DNA of 64,000 nt from Candidatus Nomurabacteria bacterium. GTDB lineage: Bacteria; Patescibacteriota; Patescibacteriia; HK-STAS-PATE-3. The translations under genes and the position numbers were made by a program. This document shows, piece after piece, positions 4,399 to 18,933 of the stretch (positions are counted from its first letter, which is position 1; the number at the start of each line of letters is the position of its first letter). The notes under the pieces were generated by a model that saw only the letters and a list, made by a program, of their open reading frames with translations, did no database searches and was not told the origin of the DNA. The DNA lies in assembly GCA_023898465.1 (NCBI GenBank), contig CP060223.1, positions 256,001-320,000 on the forward strand. The letters are read 5' to 3'.

Positions 4399-5495
4399 GT
4401 TTTTGGCTTGTCAACGGTATTTTTTTCCTAAGCAGTTTTGTGCTGGCTGCCTTGAGCACGCCGCTTTTTCGCCGGATCGCATATCGATTTCATTTACTTG
4501 ACACCCCGGCCAGCGCACCAGAACGAAAACTGCAGACTCAGCCAATTCCTTTACTTGGAGGTTGGGCGATTTTCTTTTCCTTTACCATGGTTATTCTTTT
4601 GGGTGCGTGGCTCGGCTGGTTTCAGGATGGAGTCATAAGCGCAAAAGCCTTGTATGGTGTGCTCCTCGGTGGTGGACTCATTATGGTTGGCGGTACAATA
4701 GATGATAAGTGGGGAGTAGGCCCGGCTAAGCAACTTATTTGGTCCTTCCTCGCTTGTGCTATTGTTGTGGTTTCAGGAATTGGCATCAGCTTCATTACCA
4801 ATCCATTTGGGGGTGAGTTACGCTTAGACACGCTTTCCTGGTCCGTGTTCACCATGAATGATATTTCTTATCAATTTGTGGTGTGGGCTGATCTGCTCAC
4901 TTTAGCTTGGCTCATGGGCATGATGTATACGACCAAGCTGCTTGATGGTTTAGATGGACTAGTGTCCGGAGTTGGTGCAATTGCCAGCCTTATTCTTTTT
5001 GGCGTCACCCAACTGCAAGATGTGCAGCAAGCGACCACGGGATATATTGCGCTCGCGCTGGCCGGGGCTTGTCTGGGTTTCCTTATATATAATTTTTCGC
5101 CAGCGAAGATATATTTGGGACAAGGTGGAAGTTTGCTTATCGGATTTTTCTTAGGTGTGCTTTCCATCGTGAGTGGAGGAAAAATTGCTACCGCACTTCT
5201 GGTGATGGGGATTCCGATACTGGATGTGGCGTGGGTGATTCTTCGTCGAGTGATTATCGAAAAGCGTTCGCCGCTCTCGGCAGATCGTAAGCATTTGCAT
5301 TTTCGTTTACTCGATGTTGGCTTTAGTCATCGCGGCGCCGTTCTTTTTCTCTATCTGCTCACAGCATTATTCGGTAGTGCGACATTATTCTTCCGAGGAG
5401 TGGCCAAGCTATACGCGCTCGGAGCGCTTCTCTTGGTTATGTGTGCCTTGGGTATCTGGCTCGTACGTCGATATCAAGGTTTCAATAAATCGTAG
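4395..5495 (+). CDS. Glycosyltransferase family 4, MraY/WecA-like polyprenyl-phosphate sugar-1-phosphate transferase
   Basis: Polytopic membrane protein with DDKWGVGP and DGLDGLVSGV motifs, diagnostic of the MraY/WecA superfamily. Confidence 0.75.
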   Translation: MSFWLVNGIFFLSSFVLAALSTPLFRRIAYRFHLLDTPASAPERKLQTQPIPLLGGWAIFFSFTMVILLGAWLGWFQDGVISAKALYGVLLGGGLIMVGGTIDDKWGVGPAKQLIWSFLACAIVVVSGIGISFITNPFGGELRLDTLSWSVFTMNDISYQFVVWADLLTLAWLMGMMYTTKLLDGLDGLVSGVGAIASLILFGVTQLQDVQQATTGYIALALAGACLGFLIYNFSPAKIYLGQGGSLLIGFFLGVLSIVSGGKIATALLVMGIPILDVAWVILRRVIIEKRSPLSADRKHLHFRLLDVGFSHRGAVLFLYLLTALFGSATLFFRGVAKLYALGALLLVMCALGIWLVRRYQGFNKS

Positions 5496-6016: not shown

Positions 6017-6346
6017 ATGCCTAAAGAAGAAAACAAGCAACTCGCGGTTATTGCCCAGGGCGGACGTCAATATGTAGTTCGGCCAAACGCAAAAATTACG
6101 GTCAATTCTTTCACCCATGAAGGCGACACTGTCACGCTCGATAATGTGCTTTTAGTGCATGATGGAAAAACCACCAAGGTTGGTAAGCCTCAAGTGGAGG
6201 GTGCCACGGTTACCGCAAAAGTGCTGAAAGTAGGCAAAGGTAAAAAAGTAGTTATTCAAAAGTACAAGCCAAAGGTACGATACCGTCGCAAGACCGGTCA
6301 TCGCCAAGGTATTGTTGAATTGCAGATACAGGATATTCATTCCTAA
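6017..6346 (+). CDS. rplU: 50S ribosomal protein L21 (bL21)
   Basis: AVIAQGGRQYVV...KVGKGKKVVIQKYKPKVRYRRKTGHRQ is a typical bL21. Confidence 0.88.
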   Translation: MPKEENKQLAVIAQGGRQYVVRPNAKITVNSFTHEGDTVTLDNVLLVHDGKTTKVGKPQVEGATVTAKVLKVGKGKKVVIQKYKPKVRYRRKTGHRQGIVELQIQDIHS

Positions 6347-6382
6347 GCACGAAGTTCGAATTTCGAAACAATATTAAAACAC

Positions 6383-6407
6383 GAATGTTTCAAACATTCT
6401 GTTTTTT
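6383..6407 (+). terminator. Rho-independent terminator after rplU (convergent with recR)
   Basis: Stem gaatgtt/aacattc with a 3-nt loop, followed by a TGTTTTTT run. Confidence 0.6.
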
Positions 6408-6434
6408 GTAATAAAGCTTGTTAGTATTTCGAGA

Positions 6435-7058
6435 TTAGGAATTTTGAGTTTGGTCAGCCTGCATGGCACTTCTCCCTTTTATCGCATTGGAGAGCGTTAC
6501 CTCGTCAGTGTATTCCAAATCGCTTCCCATTGGTAAGCCACGGGCCAGGCGGGTGACTTTTACATGCAGGGGTTTTAACTGCTGATGAAGATATAAGCCG
6601 GTTGCCTCACCCTCCATATCGGGGTTTGTAGCGATAATAAGTTCCTCGATAGATTCTTTCTGCACTCGATCAAGGAGTTGAGTCACGCGCAGTTGCTCAG
6701 GACCGATGCCGTCAATTGGATTGAGTACGCCGCCTAAAACATGATAGCGTCCCTGATACTCACCAGTACTCTCAATAGCCAGCATGTCAGCGCTGGTTGC
6801 TACTACACAGAGGGTATGCAAATCGCGTTGCGTGTCACGGCAAATGCGACAGGGAGAGGATTCAGTATAGGTTCCACAGATCTCGCAGCTGCGCACCTGC
6901 TCTTTAAGCACGCGCAAACTATCCACCAGATGTTCAATCTGTTCCGGGGGCCGAGTGAGGAGATAGAGCACATAGCGCTCGGCGGTTTTACGACCAACAC
7001 CGGGCAGACGAGCAAAATCCTCGATCAAATCATGAATCGGGGCGGGGAATTGCGTCAT
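6435..7058 (-). CDS. recR: Recombination protein RecR
   Basis: HhH motif LPGVGRKTAERY, C4 zinc finger CEICGTYTESSPCRICRD, Toprim region. Confidence 0.9.
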   Translation of the reverse strand: MTQFPAPIHDLIEDFARLPGVGRKTAERYVLYLLTRPPEQIEHLVDSLRVLKEQVRSCEICGTYTESSPCRICRDTQRDLHTLCVVATSADMLAIESTGEYQGRYHVLGGVLNPIDGIGPEQLRVTQLLDRVQKESIEELIIATNPDMEGEATGLYLHQQLKPLHVKVTRLARGLPMGSDLEYTDEVTLSNAIKGRSAMQADQTQNS

Positions 7059-7067
7059 ACACGTACG

Positions 7068-7364
7068 CTAGCCTAAGCCAGGGATCTGCATGCCTGAGGA
7101 ACGCATTTTCATTGCTACAGCTTTTTGTACTTTTTTTGTAGCCTCAGAAAAAAGTTCCTTGAGAGCCTTTTCCAGTTCATCCTTTTTCTCAGGATTGAGA
7201 AATTCCGGATCAATGGATAGGGAGAGCACTTCTTGATTTCCATCCATGACCAGGGAGATTTTTCCACCCTTTACGTCGTGGTGGATAGTTTCTTGTGCCA
7301 GCATATTTTGCAGCACTTTTGCTTGGTCTCGGAGGTCTTTGATTTGCTTGAGTTTGTTGAACAT
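7068..7364 (-). CDS. ybaB: Nucleoid-associated protein YbaB/EbfC
   Basis: 98 aa; conserved recR-ybaB pairing; MQIPGLG C-terminal motif. Confidence 0.85.
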   Translation of the reverse strand: MFNKLKQIKDLRDQAKVLQNMLAQETIHHDVKGGKISLVMDGNQEVLSLSIDPEFLNPEKKDELEKALKELFSEATKKVQKAVAMKMRSSGMQIPGLG

Positions 7365-7436: not shown

Positions 7437-8786
7437 TTAAAATGGTTCCTGAACTCGGGTTTCGAGGTTTTTGAAACTCACCGTGTTCTCATCGAAGAAC
7501 ATTTGCACGATGCCGGTAGGGCCATTACGGTGCTTGGCAATGTGAATTTCAGCCACATTGCGTCGGTCGGTCTCGGGCTTATAGAGTGCTTCACGATAGA
7601 TAAACATCACCACGTCGGCATCTTGCTCAATAGAACCGGATTCGCGCAGGTCGGCCAGCTTTGGTATCGGAGGAGTGCGGGATTCCACTGCACGAGAAAG
7701 CTGAGAAAGTGCTAAGACCGGCACATCGAGCTCTTTTGCAATACCCTTGAGTCCACGCGTGATTTCCGCAACCTGCTGCACACGGCTCTCTGAATCAACA
7801 CGTCCTTCCATTAACTGGAGGTAGTCGACAACAAGTAAGCCGAGGCCGTGTTCAGTTTTGAGGCGACGGGCCTTGGTGCGCATTTCCATGACCGAGGTCA
7901 CTGCTGAGTCATCGATGAAAATTTGTGCTTCGGATAGCGTACCAATCGCGTGGCCAATGCGAGGGAAGTCATCATCCTGTTCATCAGATGAGAGTTTACC
8001 AGTACGCATTTTCCAAAGGCTAACACCAGCTTCAGCACAGATCATACGATCGACCAATTGCTCCTTGGACATTTCTAAGCTGAAAATGCCAACCGGTTGC
8101 TTGCTCTTAATCGCCACATTACGGGCCAGGTCCATTGCCAGCGAAGTTTTACCAACTGATGGACGGGCAGCTAAAATAATGAGGTCAGAACGTTGTAAGC
8201 CCGCCAGGATATTATCAAGATCAGTGTAGCCAGTTGGTAAACCGCGCAGAGTACCACTTTGCTTATGCAGCTCGTCGATGCGTTCAAAAGCATCTGATAG
8301 GGCGCTTTGCAGACTGATAAACTGCTGGCGCATGTATTTTTGCGAGACCTCGAAGAGTCGCTGTTCAGCTTGGTCCAGCAGAATATCAACCTCGTCGGTT
8401 TCTTTATAGCCCAGCGCATTAATTTCCTGAGAAGCACCAATCAAGCGACGCAGCGTAGCCTTGCGTTGCACAATATTGGAATGATGCACGATATTTGAGG
8501 CAGTTGCTACGGCGTTAGAAAGTTCCGCCAAATAACTACGTCCGCCAATCATCTCGAGCTGTTTTCGCTCATTCAGGCGATTGGTGAGCGAGAGGATGTC
8601 GATAGGCTCCTGCTTGGCATAGAGCTCCAACATAGCCTCAAAAATCATTCGATGCGTGTCCTTATAAAAGTCCTCTGGCCGCAGCTGGTCCGCAATCTTA
8701 ATAATGGCGTCTTTATCTATAAGTAGACTGCCAAGAGTGGCCTGCTCTGCTTCGATATTCTGGGGTGGGATGATTTCCTGTGGCAT
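7437..8786 (-). CDS. dnaB: Replicative DNA helicase DnaB
   Basis: 449 aa; Walker A ARPSVGKTSLAMD, Walker B LLVVDYLQLM, N-terminal DnaB domain. Confidence 0.92.
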   Translation of the reverse strand: MPQEIIPPQNIEAEQATLGSLLIDKDAIIKIADQLRPEDFYKDTHRMIFEAMLELYAKQEPIDILSLTNRLNERKQLEMIGGRSYLAELSNAVATASNIVHHSNIVQRKATLRRLIGASQEINALGYKETDEVDILLDQAEQRLFEVSQKYMRQQFISLQSALSDAFERIDELHKQSGTLRGLPTGYTDLDNILAGLQRSDLIILAARPSVGKTSLAMDLARNVAIKSKQPVGIFSLEMSKEQLVDRMICAEAGVSLWKMRTGKLSSDEQDDDFPRIGHAIGTLSEAQIFIDDSAVTSVMEMRTKARRLKTEHGLGLLVVDYLQLMEGRVDSESRVQQVAEITRGLKGIAKELDVPVLALSQLSRAVESRTPPIPKLADLRESGSIEQDADVVMFIYREALYKPETDRRNVAEIHIAKHRNGPTGIVQMFFDENTVSFKNLETRVQEPF

Positions 8787-8884
8787 AGGCGTGGGTTGAT
8801 TGTAGGCTGAGCCGGCGGCAAAGGCAAGTCAGCGCTCCACAGCTTTTTCCCCATAATTTTCCCCTGTTTCTCCTGCTTGAAAAG

Positions 8885-9442
8885 GTGGGAGCTCTTCAGT
8901 ATAATGATCCGGTTATGGGGCAAAATAATCTTGAACTCGTCGTCCTGGATGTAGAAACATCAGGCATGCGGCCAGAAGATGGTCATTGCGTGATTGAATT
9001 GGGCGCCCAACGCTTACGGGGCACCGAAATATTGGCGTCTTTTGATTATCTTATCAAGCCCTCACGTCCATTAGACCCTGAGTCGCAGGCCGTGCACGGT
9101 ATTACCGAAGCGGAATTGCTAGAAAAGGGGAGAGAGCCGGCCGAGGTCTTTGCAGAGTTTCGGGAATTTAGCAAGGATGCAGTTTTAGTGGGACACAATG
9201 TAGGTTTTGATCTTGCCTTCATAAATGCTGAATATCGCCGTTTAGGGCAGGAAGCCTTAACAAACGAAATTCTCGATACTATTGCCTTAGCACGACGTTA
9301 TCTTATTTTACCAAGCTACAGCTTAAAAAACGTCGCAGCATATTTGAAAGTGCCTCAACCAAGCGCCCACCGAGCCTTAGCCGACGTGCAAACAACAACC
9401 GAAGTGCTACTCAAATTGATTGAGCGGGCGAAGCAGCGTTGA
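8885..9442 (+). CDS. DnaQ-like 3'-5' exonuclease (DNA polymerase III epsilon-like, DEDDh)
   Basis: Exo I VLDVETSG, Exo II GHNVGFDLAFI, Exo III HRALADV; start may instead be Met at 8915. Confidence 0.8.
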   Translation: MGALQYNDPVMGQNNLELVVLDVETSGMRPEDGHCVIELGAQRLRGTEILASFDYLIKPSRPLDPESQAVHGITEAELLEKGREPAEVFAEFREFSKDAVLVGHNVGFDLAFINAEYRRLGQEALTNEILDTIALARRYLILPSYSLKNVAAYLKVPQPSAHRALADVQTTTEVLLKLIERAKQR

Positions 9443-9523
9443 GAGAGGTTTCCCTTGCTAGGACTTGAAAAAATATCAGCATTTTGCTATGTTCCCTACG
9501 ATTTAAGGGAAACATAAGAATCT

Positions 9524-9598
9524 GGGTCCATAGCTCAATGGTAGAGCAACTGCCTTTTAAGCAGTGGGTTGGTGGTTCGAGCCCACCTGGACCCACCA
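9524..9598 (+). tRNA. tRNA-Lys (anticodon UUU), CCA encoded
   Basis: Cloverleaf read by eye: acceptor GGGTCCA/TGGACCC, anticodon stem ACTGC/GCAGT with loop CTTTTAA, T-loop GGTTCGAGCC, terminal ACCA. Confidence 0.85.
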
Positions 9599-9662
9599 GT
9601 CATATCGCGCTTTTTGCATACCCAAGAAGCGAGACCCAGCATAGCGTGGGTCTCGTGTGAGT

Positions 9663-10079
9663 TCAGACGCCTTTGCGGGCGTGGGGATTGTGGCGATAGA
9701 TCGCCATTCCCGGCTTTGCGGTACTGGGAACCTCGATCAGGATATCTCCGCTAGCACCGAAGACGTTTCGCGTCGTTGCCCCGAGGTCAACACGCAGGGT
9801 TGTCAGAGGCGCTGCTCCGAGCGGATCCCCGAGACAAATAATGTCTCGATCATGCAGCGTCACTCCTTGTTTGAGGCTGGCCGTATGCGTTCGTTGGAAC
9901 TGCACACTGCCGAGTACGCCAATCTTGATCCAGTCGGTCTGCGTAGCCGCTTGCGTCGACATAGTACCCCCATTCTTCCAGTGAAAGGCACGCACGGATC
10001 TCATCCTGAGAATGTGCAAATCTTGCCACGGAGTGTAGCGCTGTGGATTTTCTTTGTCAAGCAAAACGGACACACTCAA
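9663..10079 (-). CDS. Hypothetical protein (high-GC island, first gene after tRNA-Lys)
   Basis: 138 aa ORF on the opposite strand immediately downstream of the tRNA; about 58% GC; no family recognised. Confidence 0.4.
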   Translation of the reverse strand: MSVSVLLDKENPQRYTPWQDLHILRMRSVRAFHWKNGGTMSTQAATQTDWIKIGVLGSVQFQRTHTASLKQGVTLHDRDIICLGDPLGAAPLTTLRVDLGATTRNVFGASGDILIEVPSTAKPGMAIYRHNPHARKGV

Positions 10080-10100
10080 GTGAGGTGTCCGTAGTTGGGG

Positions 10101-10898
10101 TTAGTTGACGGAGGCGATCTCTTCATCAGGGATTGCGGCTATCAAGCGTCCGAGCGCCTTTTGCAGCGAAAGATTAGAGCGGGCTAAGCGTTCATCATAT
10201 CGGAAGAAGTGAAAGGGGATAGCAGAGGGGTCGGTCAACGCCATTTGTCCAAGCGCTCCAAGCTGCTGGAATACTGCCCCAAGATCGAGTTCGAGGTCGA
10301 ACAGGAGCTCCCAATCAATGCAAGATCGAAGCGCTTCCCAGGGTAGTGGCTCTTCCATGCAGCATGAGCGCCCGGCCAGCATTCTGACAAAGTGGCAGAG
10401 CCCAGGGTTGAAGAAGCTTTTTCTCCTTTGATCAGTCAGCAAGGTGCTTCTTGGGTCAAAGGGGTACACGGTGTCGTCCTCTCCCTGCATGAGCCATCCC
10501 TTGAGCAGCTCAAGATCAACCACGCTGGTGACCAAATCTTGGGTGGCGAGGGCCTTGCGATCAAAGCTCACGATGTCGCCCCAGGGGATCGGCAGACAGA
10601 TTGAGGCAACAAGTTCCACCCAAGCACCTAGTGTGTCTTGGCGATCCTCTGGGACAACCAAGAGAAAAGAATCAAGAGTTCTGGGAAGTGCCATAGCACC
10701 AAGGGCGGAGAGAAAGTTCCCGGCTTTTTTTCCTACAGCGTCGATGATGAGGCTTCGTATAGGCTCACCATCAGTATCTTCCAAGATGCTTTGAGAATCC
10801 TCAAGACTTGAGCAGACGGTGATGGTGTGGCAGTTGATCCGAGCTGCCAAATGGCGGGCTCGTTTCTGACTACCAGAAAAAACCAAGAGGTGTGCCAT
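10101..10898 (-). CDS. Hypothetical protein (high-GC island)
   Basis: 265 aa ORF contiguous with the previous gene; no recognisable motifs. Confidence 0.45.
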   Translation of the reverse strand: MAHLLVFSGSQKRARHLAARINCHTITVCSSLEDSQSILEDTDGEPIRSLIIDAVGKKAGNFLSALGAMALPRTLDSFLLVVPEDRQDTLGAWVELVASICLPIPWGDIVSFDRKALATQDLVTSVVDLELLKGWLMQGEDDTVYPFDPRSTLLTDQRRKSFFNPGLCHFVRMLAGRSCCMEEPLPWEALRSCIDWELLFDLELDLGAVFQQLGALGQMALTDPSAIPFHFFRYDERLARSNLSLQKALGRLIAAIPDEEIASVN

Positions 10899-10975
10899 AC
10901 TCAGACCTCCGTTGAGTTATGAAGGTGCTTCCTCCTATAGAGAAGTGTAGACGCATTGCGCATCTTCGACAATAC

Positions 10976-11003
10976 TTGACAACCCACTTCACAGGAGTAC
11001 ACT
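10976..11003 (+). promoter_or_regulatory. Sigma70-like promoter inside duplicated leader module (copy 1)
   Basis: TTGACA, 16-nt spacer, TACACT; the identical element recurs at 14573-14600. Confidence 0.5.
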
Positions 11004-11225
11004 AAATGCACAATTGGTGGCGATCTCTGCCTGGCACTGACCAGGTTGTCCGGAGACGCCATGTTTTTGTATGCGCGTGTTCTTCCTCCTTGCCGCAGGG
11101 TGTAGCTCGGCTCCGCTCGCTACCCATTTCTCGGCATCGGTCTCTTTGCGATGATCGAAACGAAGAGCGTCTTTTTCTACTCTCCTGCAGGGGCGGTGCG
11201 GGAGCGCGGAATAGTTCCGGGCTTC

Positions 11226-11243
11226 ATTTCCTCACATGAGGAA
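11226..11243 (+). promoter_or_regulatory. Conserved 8-bp inverted repeat TTTCCTCA-CA-TGAGGAAA in leader (copy 1): candidate operator or RNA hairpin
   Basis: Perfect 8+8 inverted repeat with 2-nt spacer; identical copy at 14730-14747 upstream of the paralogous lipoprotein gene. Confidence 0.45.
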
Positions 11244-11290
11244 AGCGGCTTTGTTGCCGTTTTGCACCTTGAAATGCATGGAGGTTCGCC

Positions 11291-12028
11291 ATGACTTGGC
11301 GTTTCCGACTCTTCCTGCTCATGGCCATCGCGTTGACCATGACACCCCTCGCTTTCATGACCGGCTGCCAGGAGCTGCCGACGGAGGGGGATTCACAGGA
11401 TCAAGTGGTTGAGAGTCCGGAAGCTCAACCCGGTCCAGCGATTCAGTCTACTGGGCCCGAATGGTATAATCAGGTCGTAAGTGAAGCAAAGTACACATTG
11501 TGCCAGCTTCGAAACGGCACATCGCATGAGGTCTATCAGGGTAAGGCTATGGGTGATTGGCCCTACCCACATCAAGGGGATTGTTGTAACGCCCTTGGTG
11601 TAGTCCGTCAATATATGTACGGTGGTGGCTCTCCAGGACCGCTTGGCGAATGGAATGGCTTCCAGCAAGGCGGTTGGTGCAAGTTCTTTGTCAACTTGGT
11701 GCTCTACCGCTCTAGCTATGGCTACCCGGGCGGACATTTGCTCTTGCCCACTTCTACGTATCGTTACAATAATCCACGCCCGGTTTCCGAAGCACAACCT
11801 GGATGGATCTTGCAGTCAGAAACACTACCTCATACTGCGATCGTAGTAGAACGACTAGGCGGTGGCTTGGATGTAATCGATTCAAACTGGATCGGAACTT
11901 ACAAGCGTCCGGACGGAAGTTATTACTACTCATATGCCATCGCAAGGCATGAAATCACAAATACGGAGTTGGATCGCTACGATTTCATGGCATATCGTCC
12001 GCATGAGGCGTGCGTGCTGCATAACTAG
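11291..12028 (+). CDS. Secreted lipoprotein with CHAP-domain peptidoglycan amidase/endopeptidase
   Basis: Signal peptide plus lipobox (LAFMTGC). CHAP catalytic Cys motif GGWCKFFV and His motif LPHTAIVVERLGGGLDVIDSNW. Confidence 0.7.
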   Translation: MTWRFRLFLLMAIALTMTPLAFMTGCQELPTEGDSQDQVVESPEAQPGPAIQSTGPEWYNQVVSEAKYTLCQLRNGTSHEVYQGKAMGDWPYPHQGDCCNALGVVRQYMYGGGSPGPLGEWNGFQQGGWCKFFVNLVLYRSSYGYPGGHLLLPTSTYRYNNPRPVSEAQPGWILQSETLPHTAIVVERLGGGLDVIDSNWIGTYKRPDGSYYYSYAIARHEITNTELDRYDFMAYRPHEACVLHN

Positions 12029-12101
12029 ATAGTGGGGGGTGCTGGAAAGTTTTTCAGTTCCCCCCACCTCCCACAAAGTCAATTATTTACTTCATAAGTA
12101 T

Positions 12102-12617
12102 ATGAAAAAAATCCAAATAGTCTTTCTCTTATTTTCAAGCATTGTTCTTGCGTCGGTGATTTTTTATTCCGGACATGCTATTTCATATAAAAATACAACC
12201 TACGGATATTCTTTTAGTACAATAAAAAAGTCTAATATTAAAGTTCTTGATCCAGCGCTTGTTCAAGTTTCAATTATAGGAGAAGAGGTTATTGAGGAGA
12301 GTCCAATAATAAACATATATGCTATTAAGTTGGAGCAAGATTCTTTGTCTGCAACCCAAGAACTTGAAACGTGGGTAGGGGAAGATCTTAATGGTTTCTC
12401 TGATATTAATATTCAGAGTACAACGACCGAAACAGAAAAAATAATTAACGTTACTTATACGGGAGGGGGGATGTCTGGAAGTATTAAATACGTCGGATTT
12501 TATGTTTTCAATCAGGAAGAAAAAACAATAATTAAGGTAGTAGCTTCTCAGTATAATGATAATATGGAATTGTTTGAGGCCTACAAAAAAATTCTTTCTT
12601 CCTTTCAGTTAATATAA
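12102..12617 (+). CDS. Hypothetical membrane-anchored protein (low-GC insert)
   Basis: Start taken at MKKIQIVFLLF (single N-terminal TM); about 33% GC against about 57% for the neighbours; no known domain. Confidence 0.45.
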   Translation: MKKIQIVFLLFSSIVLASVIFYSGHAISYKNTTYGYSFSTIKKSNIKVLDPALVQVSIIGEEVIEESPIINIYAIKLEQDSLSATQELETWVGEDLNGFSDINIQSTTTETEKIINVTYTGGGMSGSIKYVGFYVFNQEEKTIIKVVASQYNDNMELFEAYKKILSSFQLI

Positions 12618-13255
12618 TGACCACCACTCATCGTCTCCTCATATTACTCATTGTCGTAGTTGCCGCAGGCTTTCTCTATCTTGGATTAAGATCAGATTCC
12701 TCCGATGTAACAACGACGAACAAAACAGTCAACAAAGATTTCCGTGAACTTGAAATGCTCAGTTCAGCTGGTCACAAGGTGTTTCAATCAGAGAATTATG
12801 ATTTCACCTATACGATTGATCATGGTGTTGACTGGAGCGTTAGCGAGGCTGCAGAGCCGACTTTGCTCACCACTTGGTTTTCTTTACCAAATCCAAATAG
12901 TGAAGAGGAAGAAAGAGATGATATTCCGAATGGGTTTAATACCTTTGAAAAAAATAGTTTTCGACTTGATGTATATCCTAACTCAGGTTCAGTAAGTCCA
13001 AATGGAGAAGCGGAGCTAAAAGATTGGTTAAAAAATGATCTTAATAGTGAGTATATTCCTGGAAGCTTTTTAACCTTATCCATTGCAAGAAACCGTTTAT
13101 TCAAAGTAGTTGATTTTCAGGGGATTGATGTGCGAGAGGCGCATTATTATCTATTTGGCTCTGCATTTGTATATGTCTTTTCAAGCGGTGATTTCACTGA
13201 GCAAGAAATGCGCGAGTTTATTAGCGGTTTTACCTACGAAAGAGCGCCTTTATAA
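12617..13255 (+). CDS. Hypothetical membrane-anchored protein (low-GC insert)
   Basis: N-terminal TM LLILLIVVVAAGFLYLGL; overlaps the previous stop by 1 nt (co-transcribed); no known domain. Confidence 0.45.
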   Translation: MTTTHRLLILLIVVVAAGFLYLGLRSDSSDVTTTNKTVNKDFRELEMLSSAGHKVFQSENYDFTYTIDHGVDWSVSEAAEPTLLTTWFSLPNPNSEEEERDDIPNGFNTFEKNSFRLDVYPNSGSVSPNGEAELKDWLKNDLNSEYIPGSFLTLSIARNRLFKVVDFQGIDVREAHYYLFGSAFVYVFSSGDFTEQEMREFISGFTYERAPL

Positions 13256-13462
13256 GCGCTTCATCTCATCTTTATTTCTTTACTTGACGCATCTCAGTAG
13301 TCCGAGCATAATCATTTTTGGGTAGTAACCCACGTTTTGATAAGCAGGAGAAGTACGGTAGATTCGATGGATGCGCCATGCGCACCCCATCTGCGTTGGA
13401 TTGTCACACTGAACCTCGGGTCAGGATAGCACCCTGACAAATCTGGAAAGAAAGGAGGCGTC

Positions 13463-14470
13463 ATGAACCGCCTGTTTGTCGTACTCGCGCTGATCACCAT
13501 CGGGGCTCTGGGTTTTGTTGGCTGCGGCGGTAAGGACGCCGCTACGAAGCCGGAAGAAATCCGCAGTCCAGATCAGATCGTGCAGTCTGAGATTGTCTAT
13601 ACCGTGAACCCAGACTACTCAGGGGTGAATGTTTCGTGGAAAACAAACATCCCGACAGTTGGAAGGGTGTACTATGGTAGGACTCCTCAACCAACTGACT
13701 ACGTCATCGAGGAGGTGAGCACTACTCAACATTTGTTGTGTGCACCTCGACTCAGGGGAGATGCGCTCTTCTACTTCCAAGTGCAATCATCCTTTTCCGA
13801 GGAAGTGATTAGCGCTCGGGAACCGAGCGAAGGCGATACACTTCGCACCCCACGATGGGTTGATTGGTCTCCACCTACCGTAAGATGGGTCGATCCTCGA
13901 GAAGGCGCAATAAAGGGCGGGACGATTGATCTCACTGTTTCGGCAAACGAATACGTTGTCAACGGGGTGGTAGAGGTGAAATTCTTTATCGATGGCAGGG
14001 TCATCGCTGTAGTGACTGAACCCGATGACGGTGATAAGATCTTCGTCGTGCATGACTTCAATACTACCCAGCTCACCGATGGCTTGCATAGCTTTCACGC
14101 GTTGGCAACAGATGTAAACGGTAACAGAGAGTCAAGGGGAATTACGGTCGACATCGACAACTCGAAGCCGGTCATCTATCGATGGGATGCTCCGAGAAAT
14201 CAGCGGGAGATCGGGAATTCTATCAATTTGCGAGTGGTGGCTCAGGACTTTCGTGGTGAACACGTCGATGATGTGTACATCACCCTCGATGGTCAACCAT
14301 TTGCGAGGCTTGAGGTGTGTGAACTGCGAGCTAGCGGCGTAGGAGATGTGTGGTGTAGAGACGTTGATACGTCGACGCTGTCACCCGGTCAGCACTACTT
14401 CGGTGCCGTTTCAGTAGATCATGCTGGCAACGAGTCAGATCCGGTCTACATCGGCGTCATCAAGCAGTAG
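13463..14470 (+). CDS. Secreted lipoprotein with tandem Ig-like (Big/FN3-like) domains
   Basis: Lipobox LGFVGCGG; repeated beta-rich segments ending in DNSKPVI and VDHAGNESDPVYIGV, typical of bacterial Ig-like domains. Own promoter TTGACG-17-CATAAT at about 13287-13315 and RBS AAGGAGG. Confidence 0.6.
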   Translation: MNRLFVVLALITIGALGFVGCGGKDAATKPEEIRSPDQIVQSEIVYTVNPDYSGVNVSWKTNIPTVGRVYYGRTPQPTDYVIEEVSTTQHLLCAPRLRGDALFYFQVQSSFSEEVISAREPSEGDTLRTPRWVDWSPPTVRWVDPREGAIKGGTIDLTVSANEYVVNGVVEVKFFIDGRVIAVVTEPDDGDKIFVVHDFNTTQLTDGLHSFHALATDVNGNRESRGITVDIDNSKPVIYRWDAPRNQREIGNSINLRVVAQDFRGEHVDDVYITLDGQPFARLEVCELRASGVGDVWCRDVDTSTLSPGQHYFGAVSVDHAGNESDPVYIGVIKQ

Positions 14471-14572
14471 CCTTTCCAGTCCGTCAGGAATCCAACAGAG
14501 CCTGGGATCATCGATCTCGGGCTCTTCTCTTTTTGATACGCTCCAGAATGAAAAAGTGAAGTTTACTATTAC

Positions 14573-14600
14573 TTGACAACCCACTTCACAGGAGTACACT
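14573..14600 (+). promoter_or_regulatory. Sigma70-like promoter inside duplicated leader module (copy 2)
   Basis: Identical TTGACA-16-TACACT as at 10976-11003. Confidence 0.5.
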
Positions 14601-14793
14601 AAATGCACAATTGGTGGCGATCTCTGCCTGGCACTGACCAGGATGTCTGGAGACGCCATGTTTTTGTATAGGCGTATTCCACCCTCCCTTGCCGTGGCGT
14701 TGGGGAGCGCGGAATAGTTCCGGGCTTCATTTCCTCACATGAGGAAAGCGGCTTTGTTGCCGTTTTGCACTTTGAAATGCATGGAGGTTCGCC

Positions 14794-15492
14794 ATGACTT
14801 GGCGTTTCCGACTCTTCCTGCTCATGGCCATCGCGTTGACCATGACACCCCTCGCTTTCATGACCGGCTGTCAGGAGCTGCCGACGGAGGGGGAGACTTC
14901 GGTGATCTCTGATGAGTTGCCGGATGCTTCACCCTCAGCTCAGTCAAGCCCGATGACTTGGCCCTCTTCGATCCAGGATTTCAAACTCCCTTATGATGGG
15001 ATCCGGGATGCATGCGGGGGTCAGATTTGGAAGGTTGTTTGCGGGTACGGATGTGGTTATCATCACAACACAAACTACATGGCCGCCGCGTACCATTCGA
15101 TTGATCTTGTACGGCAGGATGCGCCGACCACTCATAGCGCAGTACTCGCTCCGGCGCGTGGCATCGTTTCGTTTGTCGGATGGAGGAATGGGTACGGTTG
15201 GTGCGTGGAGATGGATCATCGAAACGGCTGGAAGTCGCTTGTGGCCCATCTCGAAACGGATCCTTGGGAATTCGTCCATACCTATGACGACCTGCGGCAG
15301 GGGACTTTCCTGGGCTATGCAGGGAACAGCGGAGCGAGTACGACACCCCACATTCACTTCTCGGTGTGGCGGAACAACGTCACTCATACGCTCGATGGCG
15401 TATCGTTGATCAACCCGCGTCTAAATGGGCGATACAATTCCGGCAATGATTATGTTGCGCCACCGACGGGAAATCCGAACCCGATTCCTTAA
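14794..15492 (+). CDS. Secreted lipoprotein with M23 (LytM) family metallopeptidase domain
   Basis: N-terminal 33 aa are identical to the CHAP lipoprotein (MTWRFRLFLLMAIALTMTPLAFMTGCQELPTEG). M23 motifs HSIDL (HxxxD) and GNSGASTTPHIHFSV (HxH). Confidence 0.75.
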   Translation: MTWRFRLFLLMAIALTMTPLAFMTGCQELPTEGETSVISDELPDASPSAQSSPMTWPSSIQDFKLPYDGIRDACGGQIWKVVCGYGCGYHHNTNYMAAAYHSIDLVRQDAPTTHSAVLAPARGIVSFVGWRNGYGWCVEMDHRNGWKSLVAHLETDPWEFVHTYDDLRQGTFLGYAGNSGASTTPHIHFSVWRNNVTHTLDGVSLINPRLNGRYNSGNDYVAPPTGNPNPIP

Positions 15493-15668
15493 CACGATAG
15501 CGGAGAAGGTTTTTCATTAGAAAGCCTTCTCCGCTGTCTCTCCTCTCTATGAATAGTCATGTTGCTATTCTTTCTGTTAGCGATCACCATCCTTTTAGTT
15601 GATTTAGGATTAAAACTATAATTACGTTATTCTGGAGCATTTTCTCATAATATCGTAATCTTACTACT

Positions 15669-16682
15669 ATGAATCGTTTTTCTATCTTCATCGCAGTGTT
15701 CGTTCTTATCAGCGCAGTGGTTTATGCTTTCTTTTTTGCTACATTATTTGGGGAAAAGAAAGCTATTGAAGGAGTGCAGGGACCTGCTTTTATGTTTGCA
15801 ACCCTGCCTGACTCAGATGCATCTGCCGCGATAAGCATTTTTGAGATTCCTACAATGTCGAAGCGAAAGGCTGAAGACACATCTTTGCCAATGCATTTTC
15901 TTAAAAAACTAGGAGATCCGAGAGAGTATTTTGATCCCATACTTTCTTCAAGTGGTGCATATTTGGCTTTTAATCGTAATATTGGGGAGCCGAAACAGGA
16001 TAAGACAAATTTAGTAATACTTGCAGCTGACGGAAAAGAAAGGAGCGTGGAGAGCGGCTCTGCTGGAGATATAGGAATAGGAATGCTCACGCCCTTGCAG
16101 TGGAGTGCTGATGAAAAAACGCTCTACGCTTTTTATACACACGCAACTGAAGGTAATATCGTAGGCCTGGTGGCAATTGATGTGGCAACTTTAAGCCAAC
16201 AACGAATTGAAAAAATTGATGATCTACGTGTAAGTAACTACGTCTTTGATGAAGTCGGAAATACCTACGGTTTTGAACCGCACTATCGATTCCGCCCTGA
16301 AGACGAGGCTCAAACAACCTTTTATCGAATTTCTTTGACTAGTGGCGAAACAAAAAGCTTTACACTCCAGCAATCGAGTTTGGACGATCTCTTGACCGTA
16401 GATCCAAGCGGGAGATACCTCGTGTACGCAAACGGAGATGATTTTAATTCTCGTAACATTTGGATGTATGACATGGAAACCGGTGAGGAGCGCGCGTTGA
16501 CTGAAAATGCTGTTGTTAATGAAATTTTGCCCTGGAAAGATGGATATTTGGTATTTCTGGAGGAAAGTGTAAACACCCCCGCAGAAAAAACACTTGTATC
16601 ATACGATGTAAATTCTGGCATTCGCAAAGTTCTTTTAGAAAATGTTACAGGGACGTTCCGGCTTCTTGGTTGGTATCCCTAA
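15669..16682 (+). CDS. Membrane-anchored TolB-like beta-propeller (PD40/WD40-like repeat) protein
   Basis: N-terminal TM; repeated D-x-S/D-G-x-x-LxF motifs (DPSGRYLVYANGDD, SADEKTLYAF) typical of PD40 propeller blades. Confidence 0.5.
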   Translation: MNRFSIFIAVFVLISAVVYAFFFATLFGEKKAIEGVQGPAFMFATLPDSDASAAISIFEIPTMSKRKAEDTSLPMHFLKKLGDPREYFDPILSSSGAYLAFNRNIGEPKQDKTNLVILAADGKERSVESGSAGDIGIGMLTPLQWSADEKTLYAFYTHATEGNIVGLVAIDVATLSQQRIEKIDDLRVSNYVFDEVGNTYGFEPHYRFRPEDEAQTTFYRISLTSGETKSFTLQQSSLDDLLTVDPSGRYLVYANGDDFNSRNIWMYDMETGEERALTENAVVNEILPWKDGYLVFLEESVNTPAEKTLVSYDVNSGIRKVLLENVTGTFRLLGWYP

Positions 16683-16940: not shown

Positions 16941-17600
16941 ATGTTAGGTTATCTTTTGCTCATTATATCGGTTGTAGAGTTTTTTATTGGCCTGTACCTT
17001 ATTTTTCGCTATGAAAAAAGCCAGGCAACAACATATTACGGTCTCTTTGCAATAAGTGTTGCGATCTATGTTGCCGCGAACGGTTTCGGATTTACCCGAG
17101 CTTCTGATAACGAGTTTATTTTTGAGCAACTTGCTTGGTTTGGCGGCTTACTTAGCGCCCCATTTATCCTTGGCTTCAGTTATAGCTTTCCTAGCCCTAA
17201 AAAATATCCCACTGAGCTATTTCCGTGGGTAATTTGGCCAGTAGTGTTATTTGGCGCAGGAATTTTTACTTCAAATATTTTCCTGGAGAAAACGTATATT
17301 TATTCCTTTGCCGAAGGCTACACTGCGCCAATCGGTGTCTTTTTCTGGTTCGCCATTGCAGTATTTGCGATGTATTGGATATGGGCAATACGAAACCTGC
17401 TGTATACGAGATTGCACACAAGCGGTTTTTATAGGAATTTTCTTACCATTGTGCTCATAGGGCTTTTTTCATCACTGCTTATTTCAGCAATTTTTGATAT
17501 TTACATTCCCTTAGTTTCAGTCACGCGCTACGGATATATTGGAGCATTATTCTCGTCTATTTGGCTGTTTACTACCGCGTATTTAATGGTGAGGAAGTAA
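16941..17600 (+). CDS. Stand-alone histidine-kinase N-terminal 7TM sensor-domain paralog 1 (HisKA_7TM-like)
   Basis: 219 aa, 6-7 TM. Alignable to the N-terminus of the HK at 22990: RY.KS.AT.YYGLFA...LAWFGG...PFILGFSYSFP.PKK versus R.ENTSSRLFGATV...FLLFSWYFPKK. Ends exactly where the kinase linker would begin. Confidence 0.65.
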   Translation: MLGYLLLIISVVEFFIGLYLIFRYEKSQATTYYGLFAISVAIYVAANGFGFTRASDNEFIFEQLAWFGGLLSAPFILGFSYSFPSPKKYPTELFPWVIWPVVLFGAGIFTSNIFLEKTYIYSFAEGYTAPIGVFFWFAIAVFAMYWIWAIRNLLYTRLHTSGFYRNFLTIVLIGLFSSLLISAIFDIYIPLVSVTRYGYIGALFSSIWLFTTAYLMVRK

Positions 17601-17601
17601 G

Positions 17602-18261
17602 ATGATTGGATATATATTACTCATTATCTCAGTTGTTGAAGTAATACTCGGTTTTTATTTGATTTTTCGATATGTAAAAAGTCCAGCAACTATATATTAC
17701 GGCCTATTCGCGCTAAGTGTAGCACTCTATGTAGGTGCAAACGGGTATGGTTTTAGTCCGTTTTCAGAAAATGATATATGGCTGGAAATAATTGCCTGGA
17801 TTGGCGGGACCTTTACCGCTCCTTTTATTCTTGGCTTCAGTTACTCATTCCCTTATCCACGTAAGTCCAATAAGGAAATACTGTCTTTAGTTCTTAGTCC
17901 ACTCGTTTTTTTCTTCGTCGTAATACTTTTTTCTAATACTTTTGTAGATCATAATAGTGTTATCAGCTTTGATGAAGGATTTCAAAGACCTGTCGGGGAG
18001 TTACACTGGTTTGTATTATCAGTATTCTTTTTCTATTGGGTTTGGTCTTTTATTGAACTAGTAAAGAGTCGAAAAAAATCCGACGGCTTTAATAAGAATT
18101 TTCTTCTTATTTTAATTATAGGCTTAGTTTTTTCTTTGTTGGTTTCGGTATTTACTAACATCATTCATCCACTTGTCGATGTTTCAAAGTTAGGTTATAT
18201 GGGCCCCTTAGCCTCTTCAATCTGGCTATTTATTACTGGGTACTTGATATTGAGGAAGTAA
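17602..18261 (+). CDS. 7TM sensor-domain paralog 2
   Basis: About 50% identical to paralog 1; 1-nt intergenic gap. Confidence 0.65.
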   Translation: MIGYILLIISVVEVILGFYLIFRYVKSPATIYYGLFALSVALYVGANGYGFSPFSENDIWLEIIAWIGGTFTAPFILGFSYSFPYPRKSNKEILSLVLSPLVFFFVVILFSNTFVDHNSVISFDEGFQRPVGELHWFVLSVFFFYWVWSFIELVKSRKKSDGFNKNFLLILIIGLVFSLLVSVFTNIIHPLVDVSKLGYMGPLASSIWLFITGYLILRK

Positions 18262-18932
18262 TGAACACCTTTCATTTAGTTTTACTTTTTACACTTTTCT
18301 TTATTCACGCGACTCTCGCAATATGGATGTTGCGTAGATATGTGCAGACGCTATCCATTCGTTATTACTCAGGCTTTTTATTTGGACTAGCACTTATTGC
18401 ACTATTAAATGGTTTATTGCTGTTATTTGGCGGTCAGGAGAGTCAAACAGTCCTTCATAAGATCGGCTTTATCTCAGGCACCTTCACTTTTGTGATGTTC
18501 TTTATGTTTAGTAAGTACTTTCCAATTTCTACTGCAAGACCAAACTCCCGCGACATTCTTTTTTGGGTAATTCCGATTACATTTTTTATTCCATTCATAC
18601 TTTTTAATCAGCAGTTTATCCAGTCTGTGATTATAGAAAATGGAATAAGTAAGCCTACATTTGGAGTCTGGTATACACCATTTATGTTAGTTTTGGCCAC
18701 CTTTGTTCTGGGGGCTATCTATAATCTCATACAGAAATATAAAATAACCACTGAACTTGAAATTAGGAAGAACATTAGAGACATTACGGCAGTATTTTTC
18801 GTATCAGGACTCCTTGGCTTTTTGTTGGACGTTGTGTTGCCAAGGTTTAATGTTTATACGGCACATTACTTTGCCATTGAATCTTCACTTTTTGTTGCGC
18901 TAACTACTGCAATTATTATTGCAAAGAAGTAA
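18261..18932 (+). CDS. 7TM sensor-domain paralog 3
   Basis: Same length class and topology; overlaps the previous stop. Confidence 0.6.
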   Translation: MNTFHLVLLFTLFFIHATLAIWMLRRYVQTLSIRYYSGFLFGLALIALLNGLLLLFGGQESQTVLHKIGFISGTFTFVMFFMFSKYFPISTARPNSRDILFWVIPITFFIPFILFNQQFIQSVIIENGISKPTFGVWYTPFMLVLATFVLGAIYNLIQKYKITTELEIRKNIRDITAVFFVSGLLGFLLDVVLPRFNVYTAHYFAIESSLFVALTTAIIIAKK

Positions 18933-18933
18933 G

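Follow-up and report, generated by a model that had tools for sequence, protein, structure and literature searches.

Two genes for different predicted cell-wall hydrolases, lying 3.6 kb apart on the chromosome of a Candidatus Nomurabacteria bacterium, open with near-identical copies of one 5′ module made of a promoter-like site, a long leader, a ribosome-binding site (RBS) and the first 33 codons, behind which they encode proteins of unrelated fold. Both genes belong to a stretch of 64,000 nucleotides (assembly GCA_023898465.1, contig CP060223.1, positions 256,001 to 320,000 of the forward strand), which we call the window and whose own numbering is used below. The first gene encodes a divergent CHAP/NlpC-P60-type cysteine hydrolase, hereafter the CHAP-like protein, and the second an M23 metallopeptidase. 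We consider it probable that the native leader of the CHAP-like gene was copied onto the M23 gene, that gene conversion keeps the copies alike, and that both enzymes are co-regulated and co-targeted as a result. Patescibacteria (candidate phyla radiation, CPR) are a large, mostly uncultured group with genomes of about 1 Mb and, in many cases, an epibiotic life style; to our knowledge, almost nothing is known of their gene regulation and cell-wall handling. An initial annotation of the window had ascribed it to a CPR cell, and NCBI indeed lists proteins identical to both as products of a Candidatus Nomurabacteria metagenome-assembled genome (MAG), on a contig of 1,082,586 bp. The module and the two genes are laid out as follows.

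10973..11391, + strand: module copy 1, running from the promoter through a 287-nt leader and the RBS to 2 nt beyond codon 33 of the CHAP-like gene; direct repeat with 14570-14894
14570..14894, + strand: module copy 2, in which the leader is 193 nt long, preceding the M23 gene; direct repeat with copy 1
11087..11190, + strand: interval that holds the 94-nt stretch present only in copy 1 (exact gap placement ambiguous)
10976..11003, + strand: sigma-70-type promoter-like site TTGACA-16-TACACT of copy 1 (sequence, 10/12 consensus positions)
14573..14600, + strand: promoter-like site TTGACA-16-TACACT of copy 2 (10/12 consensus positions)
11012..11071, + strand: HP1 of copy 1, a 5′-terminal terminator-like hairpin GGUGGCGAUCUC...GGAGACGCCA, then UGUUUUUGUAU (covariance model, 41 bits, E 2e-8)
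14609..14668, + strand: HP1 of copy 2 (covariance model, 41.8 bits, E 1e-8)
11207..11219 (copy 2: 14710-14722), + strand: small hairpin CGGAA-TAG-TTCCG
11227..11244 and 14730..14747, + strand: 18-nt palindrome TTTCCTCA-CA-TGAGGAAA, perfect 8+8
11245..11259 (copy 2: 14748-14762), + strand: hairpin GCGGC-TTTGTT-GCCG, then TTTTG
11280..11284 (copy 2: 14783-14787), + strand: Shine-Dalgarno (SD) sequence GGAGG, 6 nt 5′ of the ATG (read from the sequence)
11291..11389, + strand: 33 shared codons MTWRFRLFLLMAIALTMTPLAFMTGCQELPTEG at the start of the CHAP-like gene, with Cys26 at 11366-11368
14794..14892, + strand: the same 33 codons at the start of the M23 gene, with Cys26 at 14869-14871
11291..12028, + strand: gene for the 245-aa divergent CHAP/NlpC-P60-type cysteine hydrolase (Cys130, His181, Asp197/Asn199)
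14794..15492, + strand: gene for the 232-aa M23 metallopeptidase (H101xxxD104, H186xH188)

The two copies were compared by blastn and form a direct repeat in two parts. The 5′ part (10973-11082 against 14570-14679) is 95% identical over 110 nt and the 3′ part (11200-11391 against 14703-14894) is 99% identical over 192 nt, with E-values of 1e-44 and 1e-94, in keeping with the identity above 90% expected by the initial annotation. The outer edges of the repeat are sharp, as it starts 3 nt 5′ of the TTGACA box and ends 2 bases into codon 34, and the divergence of the genes past the shared segment is borne out, with unrelated folds standing behind one duplicated promoter, leader and signal-peptide module. 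The distance from the module start to the ATG is 318 nt in copy 1 and 224 nt in copy 2; the extra insert noticed earlier in copy 1, and put at about 100 bp, measures 94 nt. This block is bounded by GCAGGG / GCAGGGG microhomology, and the difference could have arisen by slippage deletion in copy 2 or by insertion in copy 1. The 64-kb window has no further copy of the module DNA or of the 33-residue peptide.

The promoter, the leader with its inverted repeat, the RBS and the 33 codons that had been attributed to the module were all located in both copies. A single synonymous base (TGC against TGT at Cys26) distinguishes the two sets of 33 codons and the encoded peptides are identical, with a charged n-region (MTWRFR), a hydrophobic core and a lipobox-like F-M-T-G-C26, seven residues past the Cys being shared as well. 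The G-C pair stands at the same position in most homologues of the CHAP-like family, and the shared N-terminus is a predicted lipoprotein-type signal peptide. Both leaders are more stable than shuffled sequences (z -3.0 and -4.2), and the RBS is paired in the minimum-energy folds of both. The palindrome lies 2 nt to the left of where a rough reading would put it. It occurs in the window at these two sites only, where 0.04 sites would be expected by chance, and its RNA form, a 7-bp stem closed by a loop of 4 nt, buries an SD-like GAGGAAA; it was not found in any of the related loci. At the gathering score, Rfam 15 returned no family for the window leader or for 11 related loci, with chance-level hits only at E up to 5. 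Two further candidate features were rejected. In the minimum-energy folds the 5′ GGUGGCGAUCUC pairs over a long range with the RBS and the start codon; we do not regard this pairing as conserved, the complementary CGCCAUG being absent from other genomes. Small open reading frames (ORFs) of the leader (11006-11239, 11236-11412, a possible MFLY... peptide and the antisense 10901-11062) show no conservation, and we discount them as genes because the 94-nt indel breaks the frame and other genomes hold no equivalents.

Transcription from upstream genes would hardly reach the M23 gene, given the following predicted site.

14497..14535, + strand: strong intrinsic-terminator-like site with a 13-bp stem and a T-run, just 5′ of module copy 2

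This site would insulate the M23 gene from upstream transcription. Since the gene located 5′ of copy 1 is on the opposite strand, each hydrolase gene needs a promoter of its own.

The assignment of the second enzyme is straightforward. Residues 112-195 match PF01551 (E 2e-18) with 66.8 bits for a gathering cut-off of 28.7, so that the M23 domain proposed from the sequence stands; the zinc-binding motifs H101-S-I-D104 and H186-I-H188 appear intact on reading the sequence, and the protein also matches endolysin and metallo-endopeptidase families of PHROGs. The CHAP domain proposed for the first enzyme holds at the superfamily level and fails by the Pfam definition. In Pfam, the protein has no match even at E 10, short of the gathering cut-offs of CHAP and NLPC_P60; PHROGs and NCBIfam gave no match, nor did PDB sequences, whether searched with the single sequence or with a profile of 33 homologues. 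Its AlphaFold model (predicted local distance difference test, pLDDT, 86) shows a papain-like fold with the catalytic Cys at a helix start and the His on a following β-strand, and C130, H181, D197, N199 and H220 are invariant across the 33 homologues. The assignment rests on fold and motifs, which partly confirm the protein as a predicted member of the NlpC/P60-CHAP superfamily, outside Pfam CHAP. Distant members of the family score 17-21 bits with Pfam CHAP over the matching region, below the cut-off of 26. We found 37 relatives by word-index search, and an exhaustive profile search returned 318 cluster representatives at E<=1e-3 and 153 at E<=1e-10. No Pfam domain is on record for the family, and the few members named by a source are called hypothetical. 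Most homologues are lipoproteins with a similar N-terminal length and lipobox. Peptidoglycan cleavage is the predicted activity of both enzymes, and the target could possibly be either the cell's own wall or that of a host. As a separate observation, the motifs (S/T)WGxIKxLY and VQKPGA recur past the signal peptide of both CHAP-like and M23 proteins in other genomes (related contigs or loci compared with the window are given L-numbers and related proteins P-numbers; L006 1002-1300 and 3582-3860; L007; proteins P0016, P0018, P0026, P0029 and P0038). The first motif is absent from the proteins of the window. Together they suggest a common N-terminal pro-region or processing site.

We then compared related loci with themselves. 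Four other genomes (L010, L006, L009 and L018) show sharing of promoter, leader and N-terminus between two genes, with module sequences that differ from that of the window; the partner of the CHAP-like gene is an M23 gene twice, a gene for a Cys/His protein with no Pfam match once and a paralogue once. This recurrent within-genome sharing with other partners is new, and it strengthens the proposal of the initial annotation that one regulatory and secretion address serves different enzymes. A search of related genomes for the same leader joined to other effectors, which had been suggested along with it, gave a divided answer: sharing with different partners was found, and the N-terminus of the window itself occurs in no other protein among 5.8 billion clusters.

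The four cases differ in extent. In L010 (Patescibacteria STA_36), a CHAP-like gene and an M23 gene 1.5 kb downstream have about 170-230 nt in common at 82-88% identity, with the same leader and signal peptide in both genes and a shared N-terminus that includes MKYFWSIAPPILA(V/I)LTLGLIVLAGCS; this M23 protein is 50% identical to that of the window. In L006, the sequence common to a CHAP-like gene and a more distant M23 gene extends over about 500 nt of leader (88-93%) and some 68 codons, and their signal peptide is of the non-lipoprotein type. In L009 (Kerfeldbacteria), a leader of about 440 nt (89%) and 41 identical codons are common to a CHAP-like gene and the gene of a 217-aa protein, with a 136-nt block 99% identical; the 217-aa protein has no Pfam match and, by eye, a Cys...His...Asp spacing like that of the CHAP-like family. 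In L018, identity between two tandem CHAP-like paralogues is 100% over a stretch that starts about 120 nt before the gene and ends about 250 nt inside it. Beyond this stretch it falls to 60-70%, and the genes downstream of the paralogues are 45-57% identical except for a 404-nt block at 99.5%, so that the DNA outside the blocks ranges from 45 to 70%. Each tandem unit of L018 consists of a CHAP-like paralogue and a 400-aa gene, and the high-identity blocks (4599-5000 against 6846-7250, 6285-6688 against 8482-8885) have the textbook mosaic appearance of clear gene-conversion tracts, as judged from the alignments. Leader segments alone are common with other lipoprotein or NlpC/P60 genes in L013 and L011.

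Identity was then computed separately for the two ends of the proteins. The first 33 residues are 70-100% identical within a genome against 9-39% between genomes, and the catalytic domains are 50-53% (M23) and 37-53% (CHAP-like) identical across genomes. N-terminal modules group by genome and catalytic domains group by family. The 5′ module thus evolves in concert within a genome, apart from the rest of the gene.

A second line of evidence comes from the leaders. The promoter and the 5′ terminator-like hairpin (AAnCGGUGGC...U-tract) are kept upstream of the CHAP-like family in nine other contigs. The layout is CTTGAC-17-TAnnnT, about 11 nt, a hairpin starting AAnC(G/A)GUGGC(U/G) and a U-tract upstream of the CHAP-like genes of L008, L009, L013, L017 and L020; the hairpin alone is seen in L001, right where the contig is cut at its start, and in the upstream region of L006. 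A covariance model of this hairpin, HP1, was trained on 12 sequences. In the 64-kb window it finds the two module copies only, and it also recognises untrained sites upstream of a CHAP-like gene (L007 1434-1497, 35 bits, E 9e-7) and, with the same promoter layout, upstream of an SSB gene (L020 4527-4585, 29 bits, E 6e-5). SSB genes are found near the CHAP-like gene in L002, L013, L020, L021 and L022. In an alignment of 14 sequences, 87% of the cells of the HP1 helix are paired against 33-49% in controls with slid partners, double changes occur in 4/9 pairs, and the covariation score observed was reached by 0/500 shuffles. The 5′ arm GGUGGC is invariant and the 3′ arm changes mainly through G-U wobble, so a second constraint may act on the 5′ arm, such as the start region, a protein site or an alternative pairing. 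Folding energies are -22 to -24 kcal/mol for the two window copies and range from -13 to -37 kcal/mol elsewhere, and U3-U6 follows each hairpin. HP1 has the form of an intrinsic terminator (GC-rich stem-loop and U-tract), which makes regulated termination a candidate role. This conservation of promoter and first hairpin upstream of the CHAP-like family is new, and no Rfam family matches it.

Beyond HP1 the leaders are more variable, their lengths ranging from about 60 to about 480 nt. Most related leaders carry a second hairpin followed by GCUUUGNGUUGUC, a GUUCYUUACAA box and a perfect SD-like AAGGAGGUGAU with no conserved start codon behind it. The sequence AAGGAGGUGA(U), with no conserved ORF, is found in the leaders of L006, L007, L009, L010, L013, L017 and L020. 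The window leader retains the promoter, the first hairpin and the GUGUUCUUCC stretch and has no perfect SD-like box; AGGAGGTGA, taken as the mark of a stabilising untranslated SD (STAB-SD), is absent from both window leaders. The idea that the window palindrome is the local form of a conserved hairpin between the CU-rich box GUUCYUUACAA and the SD-like box was rejected, because duplex energies in 15 other leaders were no better than those of shuffled controls and only the window hairpin stood out. By BLAST of the module against related loci, DNA similarity is limited to the hairpin and to a 13-nt TTGCACCTTGAAA common with L001. The contig L001, which is syntenic with the window 3′ of the M23 gene, starts with a homologous -10 box and 5′ hairpin (1-65, TACACT...TGGTGGCGA...CGCCACC-TGTTTTGTAT) before the gene of a 174-aa membrane protein, and has the 13-nt sequence at 2050-2062, just 5′ of its M23 gene. 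A different element, an identical 18-nt palindrome GCGCCGTCGCGACGGCGC followed by TGTTTT and GGATAAC, stands just 5′ of leader promoters in unrelated contigs (L011 4484-4501, 7728-7745 and 9815-9832; L005 3833-3850; L023 5003-5020), with variants in L013, L018 and L024. It is absent from the window and could be a common terminator or a protein-binding site.

On the explanation that we favour, each hydrolase would be expressed from its own copy of one 5′ module, composed of a sigma-70-type promoter, a long leader opening with a GC-rich hairpin and a U-tract, an RBS and 33 codons. The module would be native to the CHAP-like gene and would have been copied onto the M23 gene downstream, with 94 nt of leader lost in the M23-side copy. 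Four observations point to this direction: elsewhere, it is CHAP-like genes that stand behind leaders of this family; most CHAP-like homologues are lipoproteins whose N-terminus is similar; the nearest M23 relative, P0038, has a non-lipoprotein signal peptide; and copy 2, with its microhomology-flanked gap, looks like a deleted copy 1. Homologous recombination between the copies (gene conversion) would since have kept them near-identical. The same signals would then switch on both enzymes, and both would be subject to the same leader-level control, in which the 5′ hairpin could attenuate transcription or stabilise the RNA, or the RBS could be occluded. With its GC stem, its U-tract and its 5′-terminal position, the hairpin would in form suit a promoter-proximal attenuator or, by analogy, a Gram-positive 5′ stabiliser. 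Both enzymes would be exported and membrane-tethered alike and would make up a matched two-enzyme wall-cutting set.

Several points weigh against this explanation. Promoter activity, transcription start, hairpin fate and lipidation are all predictions, and the lipobox-like site fits [LVI][ASTVI][GAS]C at -2, -1 and Cys but has Met, which is not textbook, at -3. The invariant 5′ arm of HP1 also fits a constraint at the DNA level or on protein binding. Sharing of 5′ ends is frequent and not obligatory, about two thirds of the related loci examined being without it. Identity along the module is uneven (95% at the 5′ end, 99% at the 3′ end), and mismatch rates of leader and coding parts do not differ significantly (Fisher p 0.12). 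With only two copies in this genome stretch, a recent single duplication and long-term conversion are inseparable from this genome alone. Exact 22-nt scans for the palindrome region CATTTCCTCACATGAGGAAAGC in genome and metagenome contig collections gave no match, the source genome included; conversion tracts cannot be dated because no closely related genome was found in these scans.

The genes that follow the hydrolase pair bear on what might control it. Downstream of the M23 gene are a β-propeller-like gene and a run of genes for membrane proteins of about 220 aa (16941-20959), the first of which matches HisKA_7TM above the Pfam cut-off; further downstream come genes for a FeeM / autoinducer-synthase (LuxI)-like GNAT protein, a methyltransferase, a ThiF protein, a histidine kinase with seven transmembrane helices (7TM) and a GAF domain, and a response regulator with a receiver domain only. 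This signalling-type cluster spans 16941-26216, directly after the hydrolase pair, and includes two adjacent 219-aa HisKA_7TM-like tandem paralogues (16941-17600 and 17602-18261) with 69% DNA identity over the first 240 nt. Clusters of this 7TM / kinase kind accompany the CHAP-like family in at least 11 loci (window, L001, L006, L007, L008, L009, L010, L017, L020, L021 and L024). In at least 10 other loci, the cluster carries different small-molecule enzymes, such as a histidine decarboxylase or an aminotransferase with an epimerase. Its gene content suggests a quorum- or ligand-sensing locus of Patescibacteria that has not been described before. A broader proposal, which we put forward tentatively and would not expect to hold in full, is that the leader, with its conserved promoter, 5′ hairpin and further boxes, is a hitherto undescribed, lineage-wide cis-regulatory element for a family of secreted wall hydrolases, that recurrent conversion spreads it and keeps it uniform, together with the export signal, on partner hydrolases of other folds, and that the resulting co-regulated lytic kit is controlled by the adjacent locus of 7TM receptors, histidine kinase and acyl-amino-acid-synthase-like enzyme, possibly for use against a host wall.

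Somewhat less likely is that the leader acts as an attenuator of the riboswitch or antiterminator type, responsive to a ligand or a protein, and that its duplication served to place both genes under one switch, with a signal possibly coming from the adjacent sensor-kinase locus. The conserved terminator-like hairpin and U-tract a few nt past the predicted start would suit such a switch, as would the second hairpin followed by GCUUUGNGUUGUC in other leaders, the stability of the leader folds and the linkage of the locus to 7TM receptor paralogues, histidine kinase and response regulator. However, nothing lies 5′ of the hairpin to form an alternative antiterminator, no Rfam family matches, a conserved multi-helix aptamer was not found in leaders of such varied length, and the response regulator is a receiver domain with no RNA-binding domain.

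We judge it rather unlikely that a single recent duplication of the 5′ end of the CHAP-like gene before the M23 gene, of no selected consequence, accounts for the repeat, the similarity then reflecting youth. The presence of only two copies, the uniqueness of the N-terminus in the database and the statistically similar mismatch rates of leader and coding parts are what such an event would leave. But the same architecture is found in L010, with an M23 protein 50% identical and a different module, and also in L006, L009 and L018, and repeated chance events with sharp in-frame junctions and complete promoters are unlikely without selection or a recurrent process.

The initial annotation had proposed a common regulator acting at the shared inverted repeat, which would make the 18-bp palindrome TTTCCTCA-CA-TGAGGAAA a DNA operator for a dimeric regulator of both genes. 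In favour of this, the palindrome is perfect (8+8) and is confined within the window to the two module copies, with 0.04 sites expected by chance. Yet it lies 130-225 nt 3′ of the promoter-like site, is missing from every related locus and forms a stable RNA hairpin that buries the SD-like GAGGAAA, and it is the promoter and the first hairpin that are conserved across genomes instead. Beside the palindrome no regulator gene was identified, the divergent 265-aa gene having no recognisable domain. We regard this function as improbable, slightly more so than a recent duplication.

The repeats might also be a recombination switch that deletes or swaps the 3.6-kb segment, giving phase variation or cassette exchange. 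RecA would find good substrates in direct repeats of 110-192 nt that are 95-99% identical, and surface lipoprotein families of Mycoplasma with conserved 5′ regions do switch (PMC2268961). Here, both genes are intact with complete promoters, which leaves no silent cassette, and a third or promoterless copy was not found in the window. Among the annotated ORFs (8885-16682 in part and most of 16941-29721, ORFs 17602-18261, 18919-19605 and 19461-20288 lying outside this annotation), which do not amount to a full scan of the flanks, there is no Pfam-recognisable recombinase. A switch of this kind is very unlikely. Nor was evidence seen for active cassette exchange, the first-order reading of the initial annotation, as the window has two copies only and the N-terminus recurs in no other protein among 5.8 billion clusters. 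That the repeat is an artefact of assembly is scarcely credible: the source is a MAG, and short-read assemblers struggle with repeats of about 200 nt at 99% identity, but each fusion keeps the reading frame and leads into a complete gene, single-nucleotide differences and the 94-nt indel tell the copies apart, and equivalent arrangements occur in at least 4 independent assemblies from other studies.

The remaining genes between and around the two hydrolases are the following.

12102-12617 and 12617-13255, + strand: two AT-rich orphan genes of 171 and 212 aa, each with an N-terminal membrane helix
13463..14470, + strand: Big_7 Ig-like lipoprotein gene, with its own promoter at 13284-13312

For the two orphan genes (12102-13255), no homologue was found by word-index search or by phmmer against all fetched loci. 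The gene right after the CHAP-like gene is usually small and fast-evolving, with one N-terminal membrane helix (window 12102-13255; L010 6797-7354 and 8328-9534; L011 6882-7394; L002 8859-9512). Such proteins of L010, L012, L005 and L011 are mutually related, as are those of L002 and L021, and the two of the window are orphans; these proteins could be partners or inhibitors of the hydrolase. The region upstream of the Big_7 gene (13284-13345) has a TTGACG-17-CATAAT site, then a short hairpin and CGTTTTG, and it may be that predicted transcripts of this genome more generally start with a hairpin and a U-tract. On the other side, a tRNA-Lys(UUU) gene lies at 9524-9598, 1.4 kb 5′ of module copy 1, and a gene for a 265-aa protein (10101-10898, minus strand) diverges from the CHAP-like gene. 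GC content alternates by gene in all four genomes checked (window, L010, L006 and L009), with 52-62% for the hydrolase genes and their leaders and 32-47% for the interleaved genes; the window from 15.5 to 23.7 kb has 30-42% GC against about 48-50% elsewhere. Amino-acid content, different origin or GC-biased conversion are possible reasons for the alternation.

These results provide three handles on Patescibacteria. The first is a divergent family of CHAP-type hydrolases, of about 300 sequence clusters, that annotation pipelines label hypothetical. The second is a conserved promoter and leader hairpin, which constitute a testable candidate regulatory element for this family. The third is that promoter, leader and signal peptide have repeatedly been made uniform within a genome across enzymes of different fold, a clear natural example in which the evolutionary unit is the 5′ address and not the gene. 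Should the pairing reflect functional synergy of the cysteine hydrolase with the M23 peptidase, the enzymes are now named for tests of self-remodelling against host-wall attack.

The closest known parallel comes from Borrelia. According to the summaries in PMC10016077 (its refs 29, 52, 59 and 147) and PMC12242104, several genes of the 'upstream homology box' (UHB) / Erp / Elp lipoproteins within a genome share a near-identical upstream region and leader peptide in front of mature parts that can be unrelated, which is attributed to recombination. The window, and also L006, L009 and L010, resemble the UHB/Elp genes in having a near-identical 5′ flank and signal peptide before unrelated mature proteins. 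Borrelia has large families on cp32 prophage plasmids that encode surface proteins for host interaction, whereas we observe two chromosomal copies and two enzymes of known catalytic classes. The multiplicity typical of Borrelia is not seen here, with two copies in the window and no third such N-terminus in 5.8 billion clusters. Unlike in Borrelia, we find a long, structured leader whose conservation extends across a phylum-level group, and sharing recurs independently in different genomes.

In the vsp / vpma / vlp families of Mycoplasma, the 5′ untranslated region and the signal-peptide region are conserved within a family and the mature parts are divergent (PMC2268961). There, one active promoter is moved by a site-specific recombinase, whereas each gene of the window has a full promoter and no recombinase was found among the annotated ORFs in the partial scan of the flanks. 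In the lpl cluster of Staphylococcus aureus, the unit conserved and exchanged through homologous recombination is not a whole gene but an intergenic region together with the 5′ part of the next gene (PMC2568036). The lpl genes are paralogues of one family, whereas the mature proteins described here have different folds.

The leader itself recalls the 5′ mRNA stabilisers of Gram-positive bacteria, among them 5′ stem-loops, reviewed in PMC7509114, and the STAB-SD, which as cited there (Agaisse and Lereclus 1996) is an untranslated SD sequence that stabilises mRNA. As in these stabilisers, the hairpin is at the very 5′ end, and most related leaders have a perfect SD-like AAGGAGGUGAU far from start codons. 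Unlike a STAB-SD, the window leader has UGAGGAAA inside a hairpin and no perfect SD-like box, and the 5′ hairpin is trailed by a terminator-like U-tract.

Polymorphic toxins combine a large constant N-terminal delivery domain with a variable C-terminal toxin, and spare cassettes with immunity genes follow. The logic by which the initial annotation joined a constant 'address' to different 'warheads' is theirs, but the constant part here is only a promoter, a leader and a signal peptide, and no orphan cassettes were found. The pattern of a shared upstream region and leader peptide is thus known already, while its occurrence with two hydrolases of different folds, the conserved structured leader and the recurrence in separate lineages are new.

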